UHGV virus genome: UHGV-0155081
Length of the DNA stretch: 42,128 bases
DNA from: a virus
Strand: one strand, 5' to 3'
Positions 50 through 40,675 of this stretch are shown one piece after another. Each line of letters opens with the position of its first letter. The first letter of the stretch is position 1. Under the pieces are notes generated by a model that searched no databases, was not told where the DNA came from, and was given only the letters and a program-made list of their open reading frames with translations. Made by a program: the position numbers and the translations under genes.

Positions 50-2794
50 TCAAATCGCGTTCAGGTCTTTCTTATTTAACCATGCTTTCAGAGCGGCAAC
101 ACTGCGTGTAATTTCTTCGTGTGGAAGGGGGGCAGATAATGGCTGCTGCTCCAGTTGTGCGCAAAGCTGGCTGGCGCTACGCATTCCCAGACTCGTGCAA
201 CTGCTTTTTAGCTGATGTGCGGCACGCTTTATTTTTTCGCTGTTCTGGCTGGCGCGGGCAATGTCGATTTCATCGAGAAGCGGCAGGGCATGTTGTTTAA
301 ATAATATCAGCCATTCGTGGATCTTCTCCGTCCCCATCAACTGAGCATCTTCATTGAGTTGCGATACATCCAGCGGTTGATCGTTATTGACTTGCAGTTG
401 GAGATAGTGCGCCAGTAACTGACCGAGCACTTCACGCGGCACCGGTTTAGGGATAATCCCGCGAAATAATGAACTGGTACGCTGGCGCAACGTTTCGTCG
501 ATGACATGAGCGCTAAAGCCAATCAAAACCAGCGACGGATATTGCTGTGCCAGTTGCCGGGCAAGCGTAATGCCGTCGATATCGGGCAGATCAAAATCCA
601 CCAGTGCGGCAGCAAACGGTTCGCTATTTTGCAACGTCTCTATCGCGTGCGCGGCATTGCCAACAGCAACGACCTGCGCACCACTGTTGTTCAGCATCTC
701 AACGGTAATTCGCTGGGTTAGCGGGTTATCTTCAATTAACAGCAAACGTAAACCGTCCAGATGCACCGCCTGATTGACTGTTTTTGGCACGGGTGCAGTG
801 GCAACACGTAACGGCAAGCGTAAACAAAAACAGCTTCCAACCTCCGGCGTGCTGGTGGCGCTCAGTTCGCCGCTCATCGCCTGGGCCAGACGGCTACTGA
901 TAGTCAGCCCCAGCCCGGTGCCGCCGCGTTTGCCGCTAACCTGAACAAATGGCTGGAAGATTTCAGCCAGTTTCGCGGGATCAATACCGCAGCCGCTGTC
1001 TTCCACTTCGACCAGCCACAGCTCGCCATCAGTGCGACTACGCAGGATAATGTACCCTTCGTCGGTGAAACGCAGGGCGTTGCTCAACAGGTTGGTAATG
1101 ACCTGACGAATACGCCGCGGATCGCCCATTAACGCAGTCGGTACATCGTCGGCAATTTCAGTTGCCAGGCGAATCGGGCGACCTTTCACCCGTCCGCTCA
1201 TTAATTGCAGGGTACTTTCCAGCAACGGGCGCGGTTCAAAGGGTTCATCGCTGACCGAAACATTCTTGCCGCCTGCTTCGATAGCCGAATAATCGAGAAT
1301 ATCGTTGAGGATGGTCAGCAACGATTCACCAGAGTCGGTAATTGCCCGCAAATCATCGCGCTGGGCATTAAGTGCGGGGTTATCTGCCAGCAGTTGCGCG
1401 GTGCCAAGAATACCGTACAGCGGTGTGCGGATCTCATGGCTCATCGCCGCCAGAAACGCCGATTTTGCCTGGCTGGCTTTTTCTGCTTCCGCCCGTGCCT
1501 GTCGGTGTTCTATCACCAGCTCCTGCAATTCAGCTGTACGCGCTTTGACCTGTGCCGCCAGCTGTTCGCGGTGGCGATTCAGCGCATGAACACTGCTGCG
1601 AAACGCATCCATCAGCCGCCCGATGGTATCCAGCTCCCGCACGCCAGCGGTTTCCGGAAAAGGGGAGTCGATATCACCGTCCAGTAAGCGTTGCAGCGCC
1701 TGCGTTTGTTCGGCAAGTGGACGCGTGACTGAGCGATAAACCACGCGCCAGAGGATCAGAATCAATGCACAAAGTGAAACTATCCCCAGTAATAACAGGC
1801 TGTATTGCCCGCGTGAACTGGCTTTTTCCAGATGCGCCAGTCCGTGCTGATTACGTAGCTCAATGGTGTCGACCAGCTGACTGACTTCGCTACTAAACTG
1901 CGCGAACTGGGCGATGTTATTTTGGGCGAGAGTTTGCAGGCGATTGCTGATTTCACTGTCCTGCTGATACAGCGCCAGCAAATCGTTATATTGGCTAACG
2001 GTAGTTAACGTTGTTGCGACCTGAGCACGAACTCCCGGATCTTCAATGCGTATTTGCCGACGTTGCAGAATTTTCACCGCATTATTGAGCTGCTTTTCCA
2101 GCGTTGGCGCATTTTTCTGGATCTGTTCCAACCCCAGATTCATCACCATTTGCTGCACCCGCAGGGCGCTAAGGCGCAGTTCATTCATCTGGTTAACATA
2201 CTCAAGATCGATATCAATCAGCCGATCGAGTGCACTTTCTGCGGCCTGACGCTGATGTTGTTCGATCAAATCGTAAATCCCGGCCTGGGTCGCTCCGGCG
2301 GAGGTTGCCGCATTATTCGCCTGACCTTGCGCCAGGCGTGCGATTTCATCAGCGGCGGCGACTATCTGCTGACTGAGTTGCTGTTGTTGCTGGCGCAGTT
2401 GCAAACGCTGCCCCACCAGCTCCCCTTGTTGACGTAACGAACGGGAAATCTCCTGCTCCTGTTGTTCAATAGCGGTGGTATCAAAACCTTGTTCCCGTAA
2501 CGCTTGCAGCAACGCATTAATCTTCAGGCTTTGTGCGGTGAGCATTCGCCCCTGCGCCTGCCACATCTTTTCGTTATCGGCACTGGTCAGGTTCTGCGCG
2601 GCGAAAAGTTCCCAGGCGCTGGCTTCGCTCAACTGGCGCGCCATATTCATGGTAGGAATCAATGCCTGAGTGTTGTCTTTTTCCACCTGGCTGATAAAGC
2701 GCAGGTTGTACCATCCCACCAGGGTACTGGTCAGGGTTAACAGCGCCATCAGGGCAAAGCCCATCCAGAGTCTTCGGGTCAGGGTTAAATTCAC
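50..2794 (-). CDS. torS: TorS hybrid sensor histidine kinase (TMAO respiration two-component system), complete 914 aa
   Basis: Full-length ORF in six-frame track; HisKA motif ([10 protein letters not shown]), HATPase motifs (GTGLGLTIS), receiver and HPt-like C-terminus; matches E. coli TorS as I remember it. Confidence 0.93.
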
Positions 2795-2888
2795 GGTCGG
2801 TGCACTTAAGGTGAATAAGTTGTATATTTGAAATCTCTTTTATTATCAATGAATTAATGTAAGCAGGTCATTATTAGTCAAAATAAAA
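2795..2888. other. Candidate attL / phage-host junction (between torS start and int 3' end)
   Basis: In lambda-type prophages attL lies just beyond the 3' end of int; AT-rich 94-bp spacer here; core not determinable without the attR copy. Confidence 0.4.
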
Positions 2889-3962
2889 TCATTTGTCGAT
2901 TTCAATTTTGTCCCATTCCCGTCCACGGCTGTCCCTATACCGCGCCGCCATTGAATCTGATTTATGCCCGAGAAGACGTTGAGCAAACTTATCGCCAATC
3001 TGGTTCCGGTATAGCCTCGCTGACAGGCTACGCAGTTCATGGAATGTTGGCGGGTTTCCATCAAATGAGAGTCCAGATGCATTTCTCGCCTTTGTAAAAT
3101 ACTTTGATACTGTTTTCGGGGAAAGCGGATCGTGATGCTTTGATGCGATTATAGTTTCACTGCTGCTGGCATCCCTGCATTTCTGTAGTGTATCAGCCAA
3201 TGAGATATTGAGCGCGTCAATCGTTAGCATTAGCGGAATGGCGAGTTTAGCCCCTGTTTTACTCTGTTCAATGTGAAGATGGTTGTCGTTTATGTCTGAC
3301 CATTTCATTCTGCACAAATCGCCGACTCTCTGCCCTGTAACGACGGCCAAATCCATCGCCAGCCTTAGCCAGATAGGGAGAGGTTCGGCTGCATGGTAAA
3401 TCTCGACATACTCATTAGCTGTCAGCCTTGAGCGCCTTACTTCTGACTTTGCTGTACGGGTTGCTGTTACCGGATTCGTTGCCACATGCCCCTCGGCTAT
3501 TGCTTCACGAAAAACGTCAACAAGGGTTGACCTGATTAATTTTGCGGAAGCTGCTTTACCTTCTGCTACGTAGGTGTTTAGCATTGCTGCCACTTCTTTC
3601 GTTGATATGTCAGTGAGCGGTTTGTCCGGCAATTTTCTTCGGATTGCCCTGATTTTGCTGGCGTAGTCGAGTAGAGTTTTCGGCCTGATCCCCCTTTCGG
3701 TGAGGATTCTTTCATATCGGTCAAGCCACACATGAAGAGTGATTGCGTCACCGCCTTTAATTCTGTCTATCAGTGATTTGCGTCCGCTGTCTGAGAGTAA
3801 CTCAATGTTGGCCTGTATAGCTTCAGTGATTGCTATCCTCCTGTCTCGGCCTAATCCAAACTCTTTACCCGTCCTTGGGTCCCTGTAGCAGTAATATCCA
3901 TTGTTTCTTATATAAAGGTTAGGAGGTAAATCCCGGCGCTCATGACTTCGCCTTCTTCCCAT
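2889..3962 (-). CDS. int: Tyrosine integrase, lambda Int family
   Basis: 357 aa; N-terminal arm-binding region and C-terminal catalytic region (HELRSLSARLY...LLGHKSDSMAARY) closely resemble lambda Int from memory. Confidence 0.93.
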   Translation of the reverse strand: MGRRRSHERRDLPPNLYIRNNGYYCYRDPRTGKEFGLGRDRRIAITEAIQANIELLSDSGRKSLIDRIKGGDAITLHVWLDRYERILTERGIRPKTLLDYASKIRAIRRKLPDKPLTDISTKEVAAMLNTYVAEGKAASAKLIRSTLVDVFREAIAEGHVATNPVTATRTAKSEVRRSRLTANEYVEIYHAAEPLPIWLRLAMDLAVVTGQRVGDLCRMKWSDINDNHLHIEQSKTGAKLAIPLMLTIDALNISLADTLQKCRDASSSETIIASKHHDPLSPKTVSKYFTKARNASGLSFDGNPPTFHELRSLSARLYRNQIGDKFAQRLLGHKSDSMAARYRDSRGREWDKIEIDK

Positions 3963-12218: not shown

Positions 12219-12380
12219 ATGACAAAACGTCGTAAGAAATACCAGGAAAAAGAAGAGATTCGACACCCTGATTCACCTGAGGGATTAGTGGTAGCCGCAG
12301 CAAATAACAGGGCGTTCGCAGAGCGCCTTGTTGGTGTTTACAGACTAGCCAAAGCAGGAGTGAAACATGGGCGTCGTTAA
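12219..12380 (+). CDS. Small basic ORF between cII and replication genes (53 aa)
   Basis: ATG with RBS AGGAG; below track length cut-off; stop overlaps O-like start. Confidence 0.3.
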   Translation: MTKRRKKYQEKEEIRHPDSPEGLVVAAANNRAFAERLVGVYRLAKAGVKHGRR

Positions 12381-13197
12381 GTTAGCTGATTACAGGCCTC
12401 AACTGGAGGTCGTGGAGCATCGCGTGGCAGAACTCGAAGATGGCTACACTCGGACTGCAAACACACTGTTAGAAGCCGCCATGCTTTCTGGACTTACTCT
12501 ACATCAGTTACTGATTGTTATGGCTGTATGGCGCAAGACATACGGTTACAACAAAAAAATAGATTGGATCGGAAACGAACAGTTCGCTGAACTCACTGGC
12601 ATGGCACCAACCAAATGCTCTACCGCCAAAAACGAGCTTATCAGAATGGGAGTTCTCATTCAGGTGGGGCGTCAAGTTGGTATGAATACAAACATTTCCG
12701 AGTGGAAAACGAAAGTTAACGGATTCGGTAAAACATTTACCAATTCGGTAAAACAAACCTTCACCAAATCGGTAAAAAGCAATTTACCGAATCAGTCAAA
12801 CACAAAAGACAATATACAAAAGACAATAAATACAAATACCCCCTTACCCCCTAACGGGGGCGGCGATGGGCAGGTTAAACCTGAACGTCGCAAGACAGAA
12901 CGAATCGACTACGAATCCTTCCTGAACGCCTACAACACCGAAGTTGGTGACAGACTGCCGCACGCTGTTGCGGTCAACGAGAAACGCAAACGCCGCCTGA
13001 AGAAAATCATCCCGCAACTGAAAACACCAAACGTGGACGGTTTCAGAGCGTATGTCAGGGCGTTTGTGCATCAGGCCAAGCCGTTTTACTTCGGAGACAA
13101 CGACACGGGCTGGACGGCAGATTTTGATTACCTGCTGAGGGAAGATTCGTTAACGGGAGTACGGGAAGGAAAGTTTGCAGACAGGGGGATTGCATGA
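12367..13197 (+). CDS. Replication initiator (lambda O / P22 gp18 family)
   Basis: 276 aa; position after cII; iteron repeats inside the gene as in lambda O. Confidence 0.75.
12724..12792 (+). repeat. Origin iterons inside initiator gene
   Basis: TTCGGTAAAACA at 12724..12735 and 12744..12755, ATCGGTAAAAAG at 12768..12779, inverted partial copy 12784..12792; AT-rich tract follows. Confidence 0.6.
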
Positions 13198-16662: not shown

Positions 16663-16805
16663 CGTTAGACAACCTGATTTTTACTCCTACCAAACGCACC
16701 AAATCCCGCAAGAAACCAATCCCCACAGAAAGCCAGGTAAAGACATTCGATTATGTCTACGGGCTGTTACAGGCCAAATGGAACCGCATGAGGAAAACAA
16801 GGTGA
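16629..16805 (+). CDS. ninE: NinE
   Basis: 58 aa [32 protein letters not shown]...; lambda NinE-like. Confidence 0.65.
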
Positions 16806-16975
16806 TTGACCCAAATCGAAGTTACGAACAAGAAAGTGTCGAGCGAGCTTTAACGTGTGCTAACTGCGGTCAGAAGCTGCATGTGCTGGAAGTTCACGTG
16901 TGCTCCGATTGCTGCGCAGAACTGATGAGCGATCCGAATAGCTCAATGTACGAGGAAGAAGACGATGGTGATTAG
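16778..16975 (+). CDS. ninF: NinF
   Basis: C-terminal part of track ORF 16511..16975; [33 protein letters not shown]...EEEDDG matches lambda NinF; start may be the GTG at 16802. Confidence 0.65.
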   Translation: MEPHEENKVIDPNRSYEQESVERALTCANCGQKLHVLEVHVCSDCCAELMSDPNSSMYEEEDDGD

Positions 16976-35150: not shown

Positions 35151-35196
35151 ACGTGCATATTTAAATATTGCACGTTATAACGTGCATGTGTATGAT
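35151..35196 (+). promoter_or_regulatory. Sigma70-like promoter overlapped by ACGTGCA operator repeats
   Basis: -35 TTGCAC (35168..35173), 17-bp spacer, -10 TATGAT (35191..35196); inverted repeat ACGTGCA (35151..35157) / TGCACGT (35169..35175) and third copy at 35180..35186. Confidence 0.5.
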
Positions 35197-35221
35197 TGAC
35201 TTATCAATCACAACACGAGAT

Positions 35222-36235
35222 ATGCTCATGAAAAATGATGATGTTAGTGGGAAGGCCAAAGGCGGTAAGGCACGCGCGGCAAAAATGACAGCAGAGCAAA
35301 GAAAAGAATCCTCAAGAAAGGCTGTTGCCGCAAAAAAAGAAAAAGCTTTATTGCCCGTATCTGCGAATGAGGGAAAGTTAAAGATCGGTGATGCGGAATT
35401 AGATGTCGCGGTTCTCGAAAATGGACGGCGTATCATATCACAAGCTTCTGTTTTTAAAGCATTTGGCCGACCACAAAGAGGGGGTAGAGCACCTCAAGAA
35501 GAGGGGGTGATCAATATGCCCGCTTTTATGGATGCTGCAAACCTTAAAAAATATATAAATCAAGATGTTATGGATGTGATCAATAAGGTCAAATACAAGA
35601 CGATTACTGGCTCCGTCCAGGAAGGTTATGACGCATCCATAATACCTCTTGTTTGCGATGTTTATTTAAAGGCAAGAGAGGCAGGCGCTATCACCAGGCC
35701 AAACCAGTTAGAGACAGCCAAGAAAGCTGAAATTCTGGTGCGCTCATTAGCTAAAGTCGGAATAATAGCGCTTGTTGATGAAGCGACGGGGTACCAGCGA
35801 GATAGAGAAAAAGATGCGCTCGCCAAAATACTCGAGGCCTTTGTCGCAAAGGAAATTCAACCTTATATTACAACATTTCCGGCTGATTATTATGAAGAGC
35901 TTTTCAGGTTAAGGGGCTTAGAATACCCGCCGGAAAATCCCCGCTTCCGGCCTCAGTATTTTGGCGTTTTGACAAATGATATCGTCTACAAGAGATTGGC
36001 ACCAAACATCCTTGAGGAGCTTAAAAAGCAGAACGTAAAGGCCTCAAAAGGTACAAAGTTGTTTCAGGGGCTGACGCCAAATATTGGATATCAAAAATTA
36101 AGAGAGCATCTGTCATCAACCGTTACGATTATGAAGCTATCTAACGACTATTCAGATTTTATTGCAAAAATGAATCGCCTGCATCCAAGGTTTGAGGATG
36201 TGAAAACAGACGAACTGGATGATTCAGACAAGTAA
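35222..36235 (+). CDS. Uncharacterised protein with lysine-rich N-terminus (sieA-position gene)
   Basis: Track ORF 35168..36235; 35222 (MLMKNDD...) is the first ATG downstream of the predicted promoter; about 337 aa. Confidence 0.5.
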   Translation: MLMKNDDVSGKAKGGKARAAKMTAEQRKESSRKAVAAKKEKALLPVSANEGKLKIGDAELDVAVLENGRRIISQASVFKAFGRPQRGGRAPQEEGVINMPAFMDAANLKKYINQDVMDVINKVKYKTITGSVQEGYDASIIPLVCDVYLKAREAGAITRPNQLETAKKAEILVRSLAKVGIIALVDEATGYQRDREKDALAKILEAFVAKEIQPYITTFPADYYEELFRLRGLEYPPENPRFRPQYFGVLTNDIVYKRLAPNILEELKKQNVKASKGTKLFQGLTPNIGYQKLREHLSSTVTIMKLSNDYSDFIAKMNRLHPRFEDVKTDELDDSDK

Positions 36236-36240
36236 CAGTA

Positions 36241-36264
36241 ACCCACCGTCAGGTGGGTTTTTTA
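36241..36264 (+). terminator. Rho-independent terminator
   Basis: ACCCACC-gtca-GGTGGGT followed by TTTTTTA. Confidence 0.65.
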
Positions 36265-36503
36265 TCTTCTCCGTACATGCTGCTGAGAGTCTTAAGAAGA
36301 GCCTCCCTAAATTTTTCAGATTCTTGTTGAGCAAAACCTTCTATCGATCTTGGTGATTTTTCTTCATCAATAGCGGCTTGCAAGATCATAACTATTTCTG
36401 AATTTAATGAACGACCGTTTCTCGATGCCCTTATGGTCAAGTCGCGCTTGAGGCTATCTGGCATTCTTACGCTATATGGGGCTATGTCTCTAACCTTCGT
36501 CAT
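36249..36503 (-). CDS. mnt: Mnt-like ribbon-helix-helix repressor
   Basis: 84 aa; N-terminal RMPDSLKRDLTIRASRNGRSLNSEIV is the Arc/Mnt RHH motif; divergent from arc-ant. Confidence 0.75.
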   Translation of the reverse strand: MTKVRDIAPYSVRMPDSLKRDLTIRASRNGRSLNSEIVMILQAAIDEEKSPRSIEGFAQQESEKFREALLKTLSSMYGEDKKPT

Positions 36504-36509
36504 ACTTAC

Positions 36510-36611
36510 ACCGTGATAATCACATTGATATCACAGTGTATTCAAAAAAATTTTGACTTGATATATTCACAGTGATATGTTTGTGATTCACAATAACTCA
36601 CATGTGACAAT
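36510..36611. promoter_or_regulatory. Divergent Pmnt/Pant control region with palindromic operators
   Basis: Pant -35 TTGACT (36553..36558), -10 TATGTT (36576..36581); palindromes GTGATAATCAC, TCACATGTGA and CACAGTGATAT half-site repeats. Confidence 0.5.
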
Positions 36612-36764
36612 ATGGAAAAAGAAGTTAGCAGAATTTTGGTGAGAATGCCTCAGTCGCTAAAAGATGCGATTACAGGAAAGGCCAAAGAAGAATGCCGGTC
36701 GTTTAACTCGGAAGTGATTAAGCGCCTGATGGACAGCCTGAAGAGAGAGGGGATAACTGTATGA
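36612..36764 (+). CDS. arc: Arc-like ribbon-helix-helix repressor (50 aa)
   Basis: Manual translation MEKEVSRILVRMPQSLKDAITGKAKEECRSFNSEVIKRLMDSLKREGITV; RHH motif as in P22 Arc. Confidence 0.75.
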   Translation: MEKEVSRILVRMPQSLKDAITGKAKEECRSFNSEVIKRLMDSLKREGITV

Positions 36765-36964
36765 GTAAAGAATGTTGTTTCTGCGGCATTAGCGAATCAG
36801 ACGCTGATCAAACATACATTTACTCTAAAGAAACAGGTCGGATGCTGTGTAGTGACTGCGTGTTGGACATCATAAGATACAAGCATCTTGGATGTTCTGC
36901 CAGCATTAGCAATATAGGTGAAGTATATGAAGGGAAAGATATAACTGATAGAGCAGAAAGTTGA
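36761..36964 (+). CDS. Small Cys-rich (zinc-ribbon-like) protein between arc and ant
   Basis: 67 aa with CCFC...CSDC; start overlaps arc stop (ATGA). Confidence 0.4.
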   Translation: MSKECCFCGISESDADQTYIYSKETGRMLCSDCVLDIIRYKHLGCSASISNIGEVYEGKDITDRAES

Positions 36965-37026
36965 AGCCCCAACTGCTGTAACAGTCAGGGCTTCGTTTGT
37001 CAGTAAATCCGTGGAGAAAAACCAAC

Positions 37027-37929
37027 ATGAATAGTATAGCAATTTTAGAAGCAGTGAACACCTCTTACGTACCATTCAACGGTCAGCAAATTATCACCGC
37101 CATGGCTGCCGGAGTTGCATATGTTGCGATGAAGCCAATCGTTGAAAACCTTGGAATGAGCTGGTCAACGCAGCAAACAAAACTCATGAAGCAGATTAGC
37201 AAATTCAACTGTGTTCATATGAACATGGTTGCCGCTGATGGTAAGCTTCGTAAGCTACTCTGCCTTCCTTTGAAGAAGTTAAATGGATGGCTGTTCAGCA
37301 TCAACCCTGAGAAAGTTCGTGCTGACATCCGCGATAAACTGATTCAGTACCAGGAAGAATGCTTTACTGTGCTGCATGACTACTGGACGAAGGGAAAGGC
37401 AGAAAATGCACGTAAGAAAACATCTGTTGATGACAGGACTCCGCTTCGTGATGCTGTAAATATGCTAGTCAGCAAAAAACATCTAATGTACCCAGAAGCT
37501 TATGCAATGATTCATCAGCGTTTCAATGTGGACAGTATTGAAGAGCTTGATGAATCTCAGATACCGCAAGCAGTAGAGTACATCCACAGGGTAGTGCTTG
37601 AAGGCGAGTTCATTGGAAAACAAGAGAAGAAAACCAACGAGCTTTCTGCAAAAGAAGCAAACAGCCTTGTATGGCTATGGGATTATGCCAACCGCTCACA
37701 GGCATTATTCCGCGAATTGTATCCGGCATTAAAACAAATTCAATCGAACTATTCCGGCAGATGCTACGACTACGGTCATGAGTTCTCGTATGTTATCGGA
37801 ATGGCGAGAGACGTTTTAATCAATCACACACGAAATGTTGATATCAATGAGCCAGACGGACCAACGAATCTTTCCGCATGGATGAGACTTAAGAATAAAG
37901 AATTACCTCCTTCAGTACATAGCTACTGA
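37027..37929 (+). CDS. ant: Antirepressor Ant
   Basis: Start at [26 protein letters not shown]..., matching P22 Ant N-terminus; track ORF begins 30 nt upstream. Confidence 0.9.
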
Positions 37930-37947
37930 CAGATAACCAACGCAACG

Positions 37948-37971
37948 ACCCAGCTTCGGCTGGGTTTTTTT
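37948..37971 (+). terminator. Rho-independent terminator after ant
   Basis: ACCCAGC-ttcg-GCTGGGT followed by TTTTTTT. Confidence 0.75.
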
Positions 37972-38029: not shown

Positions 38030-40675
38030 ATGACAGACATTACAGCCAATGTTGTAGTGAGCATGCCTTCGCAACTCTTCACTATGGCCCGCTCTTTTAA
38101 AGCCGTAGCCAATGGCAAAATTTATATCGGTAAAATTGACACTGACCCGGTAAATCCTGAAAACCAGATTCAGGTTTATGTAGAGAACGAAGATGGTTCT
38201 CACGTTCCTGTTGCACAGCCAATCGTCATCAATGCCGCAGGGTATCCAGTATATAACGGACAGATTGCCAAATTCGTTACCGTGCAAGGCCATTCTATGG
38301 CTGTTTATGATGCGTATGGTGCACAGCAGTTCTATTTTCCTAATGTGCTGAAGTATGACCCGGATCAGTTTAAACAAAAAGTATTATCAAATGATATGCT
38401 AAATATGTCTCCTCTTTATTTTGGAGCTAAGGGGGATGGGATTAGCGATGATACTGAAGCATTTGTCGCGTTGGAAATGGATATAAAAAATAGGGTTATT
38501 GATTTAAGTGGAAGAGCATTTTTTGTTACTAAAAGTTTTATTGGAAATAGCTATATAAATGGTTCTTTTATTCGTGATGGCAGTAAACGAATTGCGATTG
38601 GTGATCTTAAATTAAGAGATAAAAGAGAGCCATTGATATTTTCCGGAATGCCAAAAGTATATAACACCAGACACACGTTGCGCAGAACTGAAGGTGCGGG
38701 TGGTTTATATGCGGTCATTCAGGGGTGTTGTTATGATGAAATTAACGACAAGATTTTTACTTTATCATCTACCACAGCATACGGTTATTGCATTAATGCC
38801 TTTGACGTGACGAATTCTGGTGAACTAGGAAGATACGACAGAACCCGTTCTACTGAACTTGGGCATCAGGGGCTTGGATTGCATCATAATCCTGATGGTA
38901 CTGTCGTGCTGTGGACATCGAAGCCTTATGGAACCGATGCCGCCAATCAATGTATTTCGATGGAAAATATATTGAGTTACACAGGGACAACCAACGGAGT
39001 ATCTGAAGGTTTTATCACCTGGAAGTTGTTCCCCTATGATGGAATGAGCGCAAGCTCTACTCCAACTGTATCAAGTTGTGAAAACTATCTACTTGCCAAG
39101 AAAATTTCATCGGATGGAATTACCTGCACGGTTCGTGTTTTCGACATAGTCAGCATGTGGAATAACAGAGCTCATAAAACTGATTATAGTGATGATTATT
39201 TAGTTGAGTTTAGCTATCAAAAACCATCACAAGAAGCATTTACCCAATCAATTGCTTGCGATGGGGCATACATTTACATACTTGAGTCACATACGTATGT
39301 TGGCATGACTAATTATATTTACGTATTTGACTTAACAGGCAGGTTTATTGAGCGAGTAGATATTTCAACTGTTGGTGATGATGAAGCAAAATCTGACAGT
39401 ACAGGAACTCCTGTTTATAAAGAGCCTGAGTCCCTAACAGTAATTAGAACGGAGAGTGGGTATGTTTTAACGCTGGGGATATGCACATATAAAGGAGTTG
39501 CTGAGAACGGGAAAAATGTATATCTGTTTGATATAGGCAGGTCTGGTTCGGTAGTGCAAAGCAAAGCAAGCCGTTCTGTATCCAGTAATACTGGTCTTCA
39601 TAGTTCTGGCTCCCCGGAGTTCAAATATGGAGTAAGGGAGTACAATGATACTTTTCACTGGACAGTTTGGCCAACAAGAAAGGGTATTCAAACTAACCGG
39701 GATAACCCTATATTGTTTCTTGATGGCGGAATTACTGGTGGAATGCAGTTAGCTTCAAACGGCACGGAAGGGATGAGCAACTCATGGGTTTCCCGGCATC
39801 AGTCAGACACCGCAGAAGGACCAAGAGCAATAATGTATAAGTCTCGCTCTGGTGTTGTATCAACTGATAATTTTGGAGCTCTGCAGACAGGGGATGTATT
39901 GGGTACTCATGTATGGGCCGGTGATACAGGTAGTAAGGCTGTGCAATGCGCACACATTAAATGCGTCACAAGAGGTAATCCTTCCGGAGACAATATCCCG
40001 GTTGCTTTCTACTTTGGAACCATGGGAGAGAGTGACGGCTTGCGTGACAGATGGGTATTAACAGAATTAGGTCATTTTCGACCATCAGGTTCAAATCTTT
40101 ATGATATTGGTACACAGTCGAATACTGTCAGAAACCTGTATATAAATAATAGCCCCATTGTAACCAGCGACAGAAATTATAAGCAGGATGAAGCTTCATT
40201 ATCTGATGCAGAACTACGGGTTGGAATGGCTATTTACCCGCTGATAAAAAAATTCAGAATGAAGGATGCTGTAAAAGAAAAAGGCTTGTCAGCGCGTGAG
40301 CATATCGGTGTAATTGCGCAAGATATACAATCCATCTTTGAATCTGAGGGGCTTGATGCATTTTCTTATGGGGTTCTTTGCTATGAAGAGTGGGATGATG
40401 AGTATGAGAAAGTCTATGCAACAAGAAATGTGACCAGAAAAATTTTAATTGATGAAGAGTCTGGTCAGTATGATGAAATCACAGAGGAAGAAGAGTATGA
40501 AACTGGTGAAGTAAGGTTAATTATGGAATCAGGAAGAAAATTATCAGTGCGCTATGACGAGTTAATGTTTCTGGCAATGAGCGCACTATATCATCACCAT
40601 GAGCAGGATATTGCCAATATCACATCAAAGATTAATAATCTGGAAAAATTATTAAAGTTAACACTAAATGGTTGA
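38030..40675 (+). CDS. Tailspike: P22-type head-binding domain, beta-helix-like centre, C-terminal chaperone-like domain
   Basis: 881 aa; first ~110 aa match P22 gp9 head-binding domain; [15 protein letters not shown] beta-helix cap motif; C-terminal GVIAQD region resembles S74 intramolecular chaperone domains. Confidence 0.85.

Follow-up and report, generated by a model that had tools for sequence, protein, structure and literature searches.

The virus genome UHGV-0155081 (42,128 nt, all of which was analysed and is here called the window; coordinates refer to it unless another locus is named) contains a P22-type immunity region, immI, in which an open reading frame (ORF) of 67 codons, designated ORF67 (36761..36964, + strand), lies between the repressor gene arc and the antirepressor gene ant. 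ORF67 is very probably a real protein-coding gene, and the encoded protein is probably, as judged from sequence profiles, related to the zinc-binding domain (ZBD) of ClpX in both fold and ancestry, though divergent and free-standing. The gene is an exchangeable cassette, bounded at the left by the conserved 3' end of arc and at the right by the terminator of the antisense RNA gene sar. It is a conserved gene missing from standard annotation, being uncalled in phage CUS-3 and in the RefSeq E. coli records inspected. The domain type is already known, and the protein family is catalogued as phrog_7150. What appears to be new is that ORF67 is recognised as a gene and as kin of the ClpX ZBD, together with the definition of a cassette slot between arc and sar, which has conserved flanks and can hold any of at least eight occupants, and the enrichment of ClpX N-domain-like proteins among these occupants.

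In P22, epsilon34 and most of their relatives arc is followed directly by sar and ant, and the window differs by the presence of ORF67 between them. Similarity to P22 and epsilon34 DNA sets in only at 36957, just before ORF67 ends, and ORF67 therefore corresponds to material missing between arc and sar in P22. The initial annotation had described an extra cysteine-rich ORF, translationally coupled to arc and inserted before ant. Insertion relative to P22 is borne out by the homology boundary, coupling by the overlap of the ORF67 ATG with the arc TGA (ATGA, 36761-36764), and the cysteine-rich character by two CxxC knuckles (C5/C8 and C30/C33). The insertion is not unique: at least eight cassettes, ORF67 among them, alternate at a fixed recombination slot. 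A GAGG Shine-Dalgarno sequence lies 9-14 nt 5' of the start, within the last arc codons. ORF67 ends inside the 3' end of sar, 62 nt before the start of ant, and no promoter-like or terminator-like site was seen inside it. The protein begins MSKECCFCGISESDADQTYIYSKETGRMLCSDCVLDIIRYKH..., and has a mass of 7.4 kDa and a pI of 4.6. Cysteines are found at positions 5, 6, 8, 30, 33 and 45, in the pattern CxxC-x21-CxxC. Residues 1-41 form a Cys4 domain, and residues 42-67 an acidic tail (predicted local distance difference test score, pLDDT, below 50).

Residues 1-67 of ORF67 align with all 67 positions of the phrog_7150 profile (E 3.4e-50), and phage CUS-3 (CP000711) carries a copy with 100% identity. 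There, an arc gene of 46 aa (2364-2504, +), also unannotated, and ORF67 (2501-2704, +) both lie inside a misc_feature labelled as the boundary sequence 'bsq2', over which no gene is annotated. CUS-3 has been described in a published comparison as apparently lacking arc (PMC2629481), a statement that needs correcting. Prophages of Salmonella and E. coli carry ORF67 homologs of 63-68 aa, 25-38% identical over the full length, at this slot, and the ORF is thus conserved in related prophages, contrary to what the initial annotation named as grounds for refutation. Each homolog lies after arc and ahead of sar/ant, overlaps the arc stop codon by 4 nt as ORF67 does, and ends at the same place. They include a Salmonella protein of 68 aa (P0014, P0019) and a protein of 63 aa (P0020-22), which are 26-38% identical to ORF67 (BLASTP E 4e-11 for the 63-aa protein). 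Residues C5, C6, F7, C8, G9, S22, K23, T25, C30, C33 and I37 are invariant. The chance that 67 codons of the ORF67 composition stay open is about 0.0045, and the frame stays open in many independent genomic contexts. The window holds 59 ORFs that start with ATG and measure 60-100 aa; two CxxC motifs are present in only 2 of these, ORF67 among them. The other (16778-16975, +; 65 aa, ...CANCGQKLHVLEVHVCSDCC...) presumably resembles the lambdoid NinF protein.

The 204-nt segment could in principle be non-coding 'boundary' DNA, a recombination linker or a spacer between arc and sar, its frame being incidental or a decaying remnant. The sole annotation given to the segment in CUS-3, as bsq2, fits this idea, as does a DNA conservation (97.5-100%) in which synonymous changes are nearly absent. 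It is very unlikely to hold, because homologs only about 25-38% identical retain the same length, start overlap, stop position and cysteine pattern; this indicates coding, and a function at the DNA level cannot explain it. Moreover, it is in the flanks, at the 3' end of arc and in sar, that conserved, recombination-prone sequences lie, and not in the interior of the cassette.

Some observations do weigh against ORF67 being a gene, or agree with a non-coding segment. ORF67 was not called by the Prokaryotic Genome Annotation Pipeline (PGAP) in the RefSeq E. coli genomes inspected. Its sequence is present in 373 of 5,426 complete E. coli genomes; of 374 matching records, 304 have an identity of 95-99%, whereas 70 reach at least 99% and are of the intact type. 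All sampled records of the 95-99% band, from O157:H7, O145 and related strains, correspond to a 97.1% variant, a copy fixed in O157/O145 prophages, and in IMG/VR loci this variant has a 1-nt insertion that breaks the frame. Nor do substitution patterns assist: copies of ORF67 differ by 0-2 nt and provide no support from the ratio of nonsynonymous to synonymous changes (dN/dS), and the one informative pair of Salmonella homologs gave a dN/dS of about 1.2, from 17 changes at very few sites. The frameshift itself is no evidence against a gene, since the neighbouring arc is also broken in 9 of 12 loci with a frameshifted ORF67, which points to the decay of whole modules in cryptic prophages.

In E. 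coli O145 RM9872 (2250-3908 of the extracted locus) and in O157:H7, the mnt-arc-(frameshifted ORF67)-sar-ant module is located within the tail gene cluster of Shiga toxin (Stx)-type lambdoid prophages, flanked by the genes for minor tail protein L and for a K-like C40 peptidase. Truncated arc genes are also found in several of the Stx-type prophage copies of the module.

The ORF67 family and the ClpX ZBD share the signature CxFCGxS ... h-h-C-x-x-C-V, followed by a helix. A ClpX-type zinc-binding domain has two CxxC pairs set about 18-22 residues apart, and ORF67 shows this arrangement as CCFCG-x21-LCSDCV; C5, C8, C30 and C33 are invariant in six family members 26-38% identical to ORF67. When the ORF67 family profile was compared to 177,635 PDB sequences, the sole match was ClpX, at the ZBD (E 0.012). 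Alignment of the family to ClpX ZBDs by hhalign gave a probability of 80% and a P value of 1.4e-5. In addition, ORF67 and the ZBD of E. coli ClpX have a match to phrog_5259 in common, and the Salmonella homolog P0019 is named 'ClpX-type ZB domain-containing protein' in UniRef. Together these data provide moderate, not conclusive, support for a profile homology that singles out the ClpX ZBD and does not extend to zinc fingers at large.

The link is visible at the profile level only, and searches with the single sequence run counter to it. On its own, ORF67 does not reach any threshold of Pfam or NCBIfam, the gathering threshold of PF06689 (27 bits) included, and the Pfam search returned nothing at E<=1 except a chance-level match to UPF0167. 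A phmmer search of the PDB with ORF67 returned RNF4 RING domains (per-domain E about 2) and no ClpX. The RNF4 similarity was rejected as noise due to the cysteine pattern, as it was lost with the family profile. A phmmer search against 1.84 billion representative sequences returned mostly fish Ig-repeat proteins, rejected as spurious, and a single true distant homolog, P0014. No match was obtained by tblastn of a Salmonella homolog against the phage collection.

A low-confidence AlphaFold2 model predicts a hairpin (19-21/28-30) and a helix (31-39) starting at the second CxxC (C30-C33), a predicted secondary structure which fits the treble-clef type topology of the ClpX ZBD. The ORF had initially been described as zinc-ribbon-like. 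The paired CxxC knuckles hold, and a classical zinc ribbon, in which both knuckles would lie in beta-hairpins of a three-stranded sheet, is not favoured, as the second CxxC begins a helix in the model and no zinc-ribbon family was matched in the Pfam search; the ClpX-type ZBD is the better match. ORF67 is not ClpX itself, as it is 67 aa long, stops at 36964 and has no AAA+ module. It differs from the ClpX ZBD (PF06689, zf-C4_ClpX; E. coli ClpX residues 1-60; PDB 1OVX, 2DS5-2DS8) in being free-standing, in a hairpin 3 residues longer, in the helix register after the second CxxC and in a 26-residue acidic tail of its own.

Structure searches returned RING and ZZ domains, and small treble-clef fingers are generic protein-binding modules. 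ORF67 might thus be a small zinc finger that uses a ClpX-like fold as a scaffold and binds Ant, the CI/C2 repressor, Arc, Mnt or nucleic acid, with no role in ClpXP proteolysis, its task being the fine-tuning of antirepressor action or of immunity. Cotranscription with, and translational coupling to, the arc-ant operon agree with this possibility, as does the tail, in which a weakly conserved motif E-x-[ILV]-[ES]-[NS]-[ILV] recurs across subfamilies and could serve for docking. The specificity of the profile similarity, with ClpX as the sole PDB match, speaks against it, and so does the way in which ORF67 is combined with its neighbours. Across 44 loci ORF67 DNA is 97.5-100% identical, in contrast to 52-100% for arc, 40-100% for mnt and 33-100% for the 5' end of ant, and intact ORF67 is found together with 3 Arc alleles and with at least five unrelated types of Ant N-terminus. 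The hypothesis that ORF67 is tied to one Ant type was rejected on these grounds, which argues against an Ant-specific partner. As about 59% of the P22-type ant operons have no cassette at all, a dedicated partnership with either Ant or Arc is unlikely. A plain zinc-finger adaptor is on balance rather unlikely.

The contents of the slot were surveyed in an unbiased set of IMG/VR contigs fetched via the exact P22-type ant ribosome-binding site, and the sequence preceding the site was classified in the 92 contigs that were usable. The slot is empty, arc being followed by sar, in 54 contigs, and filled in the other 38. At least eight alternative cassettes were found, five of which encode CxxC...CxxC proteins, and one of these five passes the Pfam zf-C4_ClpX model. 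ORF67, itself of the CxxC...CxxC kind, occupies 9 contigs. The 57-aa, GTG-started N57 (phrog_17642) was found in 11 contigs, the 89-aa predicted membrane protein TM89 (phrog_27312) in 3, and the 73-aa N73 (phrog_11805), known also from phage vB_EcoP-611R6, in another 3; none of these three has a cysteine motif. The eighth cassette, ORF68, comes from Salmonella. N57, N73 and TM89, which are unrelated, feature the same 4-nt overlap, as seen in loci L122/L062, L001 (2023-2244) and L128/L150, respectively.

Different cassettes have junction sequences in common. At the left, the conserved junction (36732..36764, +; GACAGCCTGAAGAGAGAGGGG-N8-ATGA) includes the codons for the C-terminus of Arc (..DSLKREGITV), with the GAGG Shine-Dalgarno sequence and the stop and start codons that overlap. 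Through recombination in the flanks the cassette is shuffled between different alleles of arc, mnt and ant. The region referred to as immI or the 'ant moron' is reported to be highly variable in P22-like phages (PMC2629481), and the cassette slot is absent from that comparison. A well-studied region such as immI is thereby found to hold a defined slot with conserved recombination flanks, and provides a natural system in which to follow mosaic exchange.

Such a slot could alternatively be a cargo (moron) site for genes of counter-defence or inter-phage competition fired together with Ant, the target of ORF67 being unrelated to ClpXP. The alternation of eight or more small ORFs, which are related distantly or not at all, including the membrane protein TM89 and two families devoid of a cysteine motif, suits a cargo site. 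So does the mosaic distribution of near-identical DNA across backgrounds, as expected of accessory genes that have spread recently, and a dN/dS of about 1 between Salmonella variants would fit an arms-race protein. On the other side, CxxC...CxxC proteins from 4-5 distinct lineages account for 21 of the 38 filled slots, which points to a common activity related to the ClpX ZBD. Moreover, at E<=0.1 neither ORF67 nor any other slot occupant matched a PADLOC defence model, and ORF67 matched no functionally annotated PHROG. We regard unrelated cargo as unlikely.

On the anatomy of the region, ORF67 would be transcribed from the ant promoter, Pant, on an arc-orf67-ant message, and ribosomes ending arc would translate it via the ATGA overlap. 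Given the coupling to arc, the lack of an internal promoter- or terminator-like site and the position before the sar-controlled ant site, expression should follow Pant. In P22, infection or the absence of Mnt sets off a burst from Pant, which Arc then ends. ORF67 would hence be made only together with Ant, early after infection or without Mnt, until Arc shuts expression off.

The N-domain of ClpX dimerises autonomously and docks FtsZ, MuA and adaptors, and is dispensable for recognising ssrA tags directly (PMC5415555). Degradation of lambda O requires the ZBD, which binds lambda O as well as SspB and RssB by means of a hydrophobic patch formed around F16/I46 (PMC7804408). The Phe of the CxFCG motif is invariant in the ORF67 family, and a Phage_rep_O initiator is encoded in this prophage (12367-13197). 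As a free ZBD-like protein, ORF67 might be a mimic of the ClpX N-domain, and work as a decoy titrating ClpX adaptors (SspB, RssB) and N-domain-dependent substrates (lambda O, MuA); alternatively, it might pair with the N-domain of ClpX itself. By either route, the targets of ClpXP degradation would change transiently during the Ant burst. The O-type replication initiator of the phage could be stabilised, an effect in the same pro-lytic direction as that of Ant, or the ClpXP-dependent turnover of antitoxins could be blocked in defence systems of the host or of a resident prophage.

That ORF67 modulates ClpXP proteolysis as a free mimic of the ClpX N-domain is the favoured mechanism, yet doubtful at present, and the complete account, of a translated immI accessory gene, related to the ClpX ZBD, carried as a cassette and acting as a ClpXP decoy, is offered as a tentative one, which we would not expect to hold in all its parts. 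Three points count against a function in ClpXP proteolysis. The occurrence of N57, N73 and TM89 at the same position shows that the slot needs no ClpX-related function. A ClpP-like gene that neighbours some of these cassettes occurs also with unrelated ones, and is absent from the window. Finally, no functional study was found in the literature on phage ClpX-ZBD-like proteins, on ClpXP in connection with antirepressors or on the CUS-3 boundary sequences.

The ClpP-like gene deserves a description of its own. It codes for a 178-aa protein of the ClpP family that matches Pfam CLP_protease (E 1e-11) and shares 27% identity with E. coli ClpP, Ser and His being aligned, and it is present at L046:1967-2503 (-), L004:1719-2255 (-) and in some 35 further related loci. 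Many related immI regions have the gene translationally coupled 3' of mnt, where it would be expressed from the mnt promoter, Pmnt, in lysogens. The vicinity of a ClpP-like gene to a ClpX-ZBD-like gene is a striking coincidence. A functional tie of the ClpP-like gene to ZBD-like cassettes was considered and rejected, as the gene is found with the unrelated N57 at least as often; it appears to track one mnt/arc allele.

Precedents exist for interference with host proteolysis. Lambda RexB has been reported to block the ClpX-dependent proteolysis of lambda O, Phd and MazE (PMC11077077). In the activity proposed, ORF67 would be like RexB (ClpXP/ClpAP) a small phage protein that alters degradation by a host AAA+ protease, to the benefit of phage proteins such as lambda O, or of antitoxins. 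Other phage modulators are lambda CIII (FtsH), T4 PinA and T7 gp4.5 (Lon), and SPO1 gp53 (ClpCP). None of these proteins, RexB included, is related in sequence to ORF67, and none copies the substrate-docking domain of the protease. In position, ORF67 resembles icd of phage P1, a small ORF of immI which similarly lies between a regulatory element and an antisense-RNA-controlled antirepressor gene. The P1 icd frame overlaps ant1 and has to be translated for ant to be expressed; ORF67, in contrast, stops 62 nt short of ant, which retains a ribosome-binding site of its own under the control of sar, and icd and ORF67 have no sequence similarity.

By extension, P22-like and some lambdoid phages may have repeatedly recruited free copies of the ClpX docking domain into the antirepressor operon as protease decoys, a generalisation to be regarded with as much doubt as the activity of ORF67 itself. 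If correct, such decoys would favour lytic growth by stabilising the O-type initiator, by stopping ClpXP-triggered antitoxin loss and abortive infection, or both. They would represent a new class of phage protease modulators, made from the recognition module of the protease itself, and the first link between immI and ClpXP, and could provide a tool to block adaptor-dependent ClpXP degradation selectively. In any case, the ClpX N-domain-like zinc-finger cassettes, more than half of those found, supply a concrete hypothesis that is cheap to test, namely that superinfecting P22-like phages manipulate the choice of ClpXP substrates while deploying the antirepressor.

Proteins resembling the ClpX ZBD are found in other phage families. 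Beside phrog_7150, to which ORF67 belongs, they include phrog_5259, 6797, 12435 and 20296; phrog_12435 is labelled 'protease', and phrog_7150, 5259, 6797 and 20296 are all annotated as of 'unknown function'. Unlike ORF67, the ZBD-like proteins of other phages are encoded in contexts other than immI. In the P2-like coliphage P88 (KP063541) a 110-aa protein with a ClpX-ZBD-like C-terminal part, annotated as 'carboxylate-amine ligase', is encoded at 2824-3156, in the early region and 3' of a replication gene. Free ZBD-like proteins are thus present also in other groups of temperate phages and in other contexts.

The region hosting ORF67 is a complete P22-type immI, with divergent mnt and arc genes, sar lying over the ant ribosome-binding site and a P22-type ant; all four canonical parts of the P22 region (mnt, arc, sar, ant) are present in the canonical order. 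The mnt gene (36249..36503, -) encodes an 84-aa ribbon-helix-helix (RHH) repressor, is divergent to arc and matches Pfam Arc (E 1.1e-8) and FitA-like_RHH (E 2.5e-8); its counterparts in related loci also match Pfam Repressor_Mnt. The 108-nt Pmnt/Pant control region (36504..36611) features operator-like inverted repeats, I1-I3, and a candidate sigma-70-like Pant (36553-36581, TTGACT-17-TATGTT), recognised by consensus match alone. The arc gene (36612..36764, +) encodes a 50-aa Arc repressor (Pfam Arc E 2.4e-12), and in related loci L003-L005 the corresponding ORF is called by PGAP as an Arc family DNA-binding protein.

The sar antisense RNA (36959..37026, -) matches Rfam RF00262 over the full length (90 bits, gathering score 43, E 3e-19), and folds into two stem-loops (-29.5 kcal/mol, z -5.3). 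The terminator hairpin of sar starts where the stop codon of ORF67 lies, and the 5' part of the RNA overlies the ant ribosome-binding site. It is found 3' of ORF67 also in CUS-3 (L002) and in loci L003, L010 and L028. The ant gene (37027..37929, +) encodes a 300-aa P22-type antirepressor starting MNSIAILEA... (Pfam P22_AR_N E 2.9e-45; P22_AR_C E 2.3e-29), and its DNA is 98% identical to ant of epsilon34 and 86% to that of P22. A terminator-like hairpin (37947..37966, +) lies 3' of ant and 5' of the tailspike gene (38030-40675, ORF call). An antisense ORF of 92 aa (36797-37075, -) runs across sar and most of ORF67; it is without support as a gene, and depends on the sequence of the ORF67 cassette.

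On the other side of mnt, a gene for a P63C-domain protein (35168-36235, +) is located between the DNA-transfer genes and mnt, and ends at a bidirectional terminator-like hairpin (36240-36259) common to the 3' end of mnt. Different genes occupy this position in related loci, among which HicAB, a YafO-like toxin and the ClpP-like gene. At the left end of the window the host sensor kinase gene torS (50-2794, -) is followed by a lambda-type integrase gene (2889-3962, -), and the window therefore corresponds to a whole P22-like prophage integrated beside torS. Its immC region encodes a CI-type S24 repressor, CII, the O-type initiator and a DnaB-type helicase.

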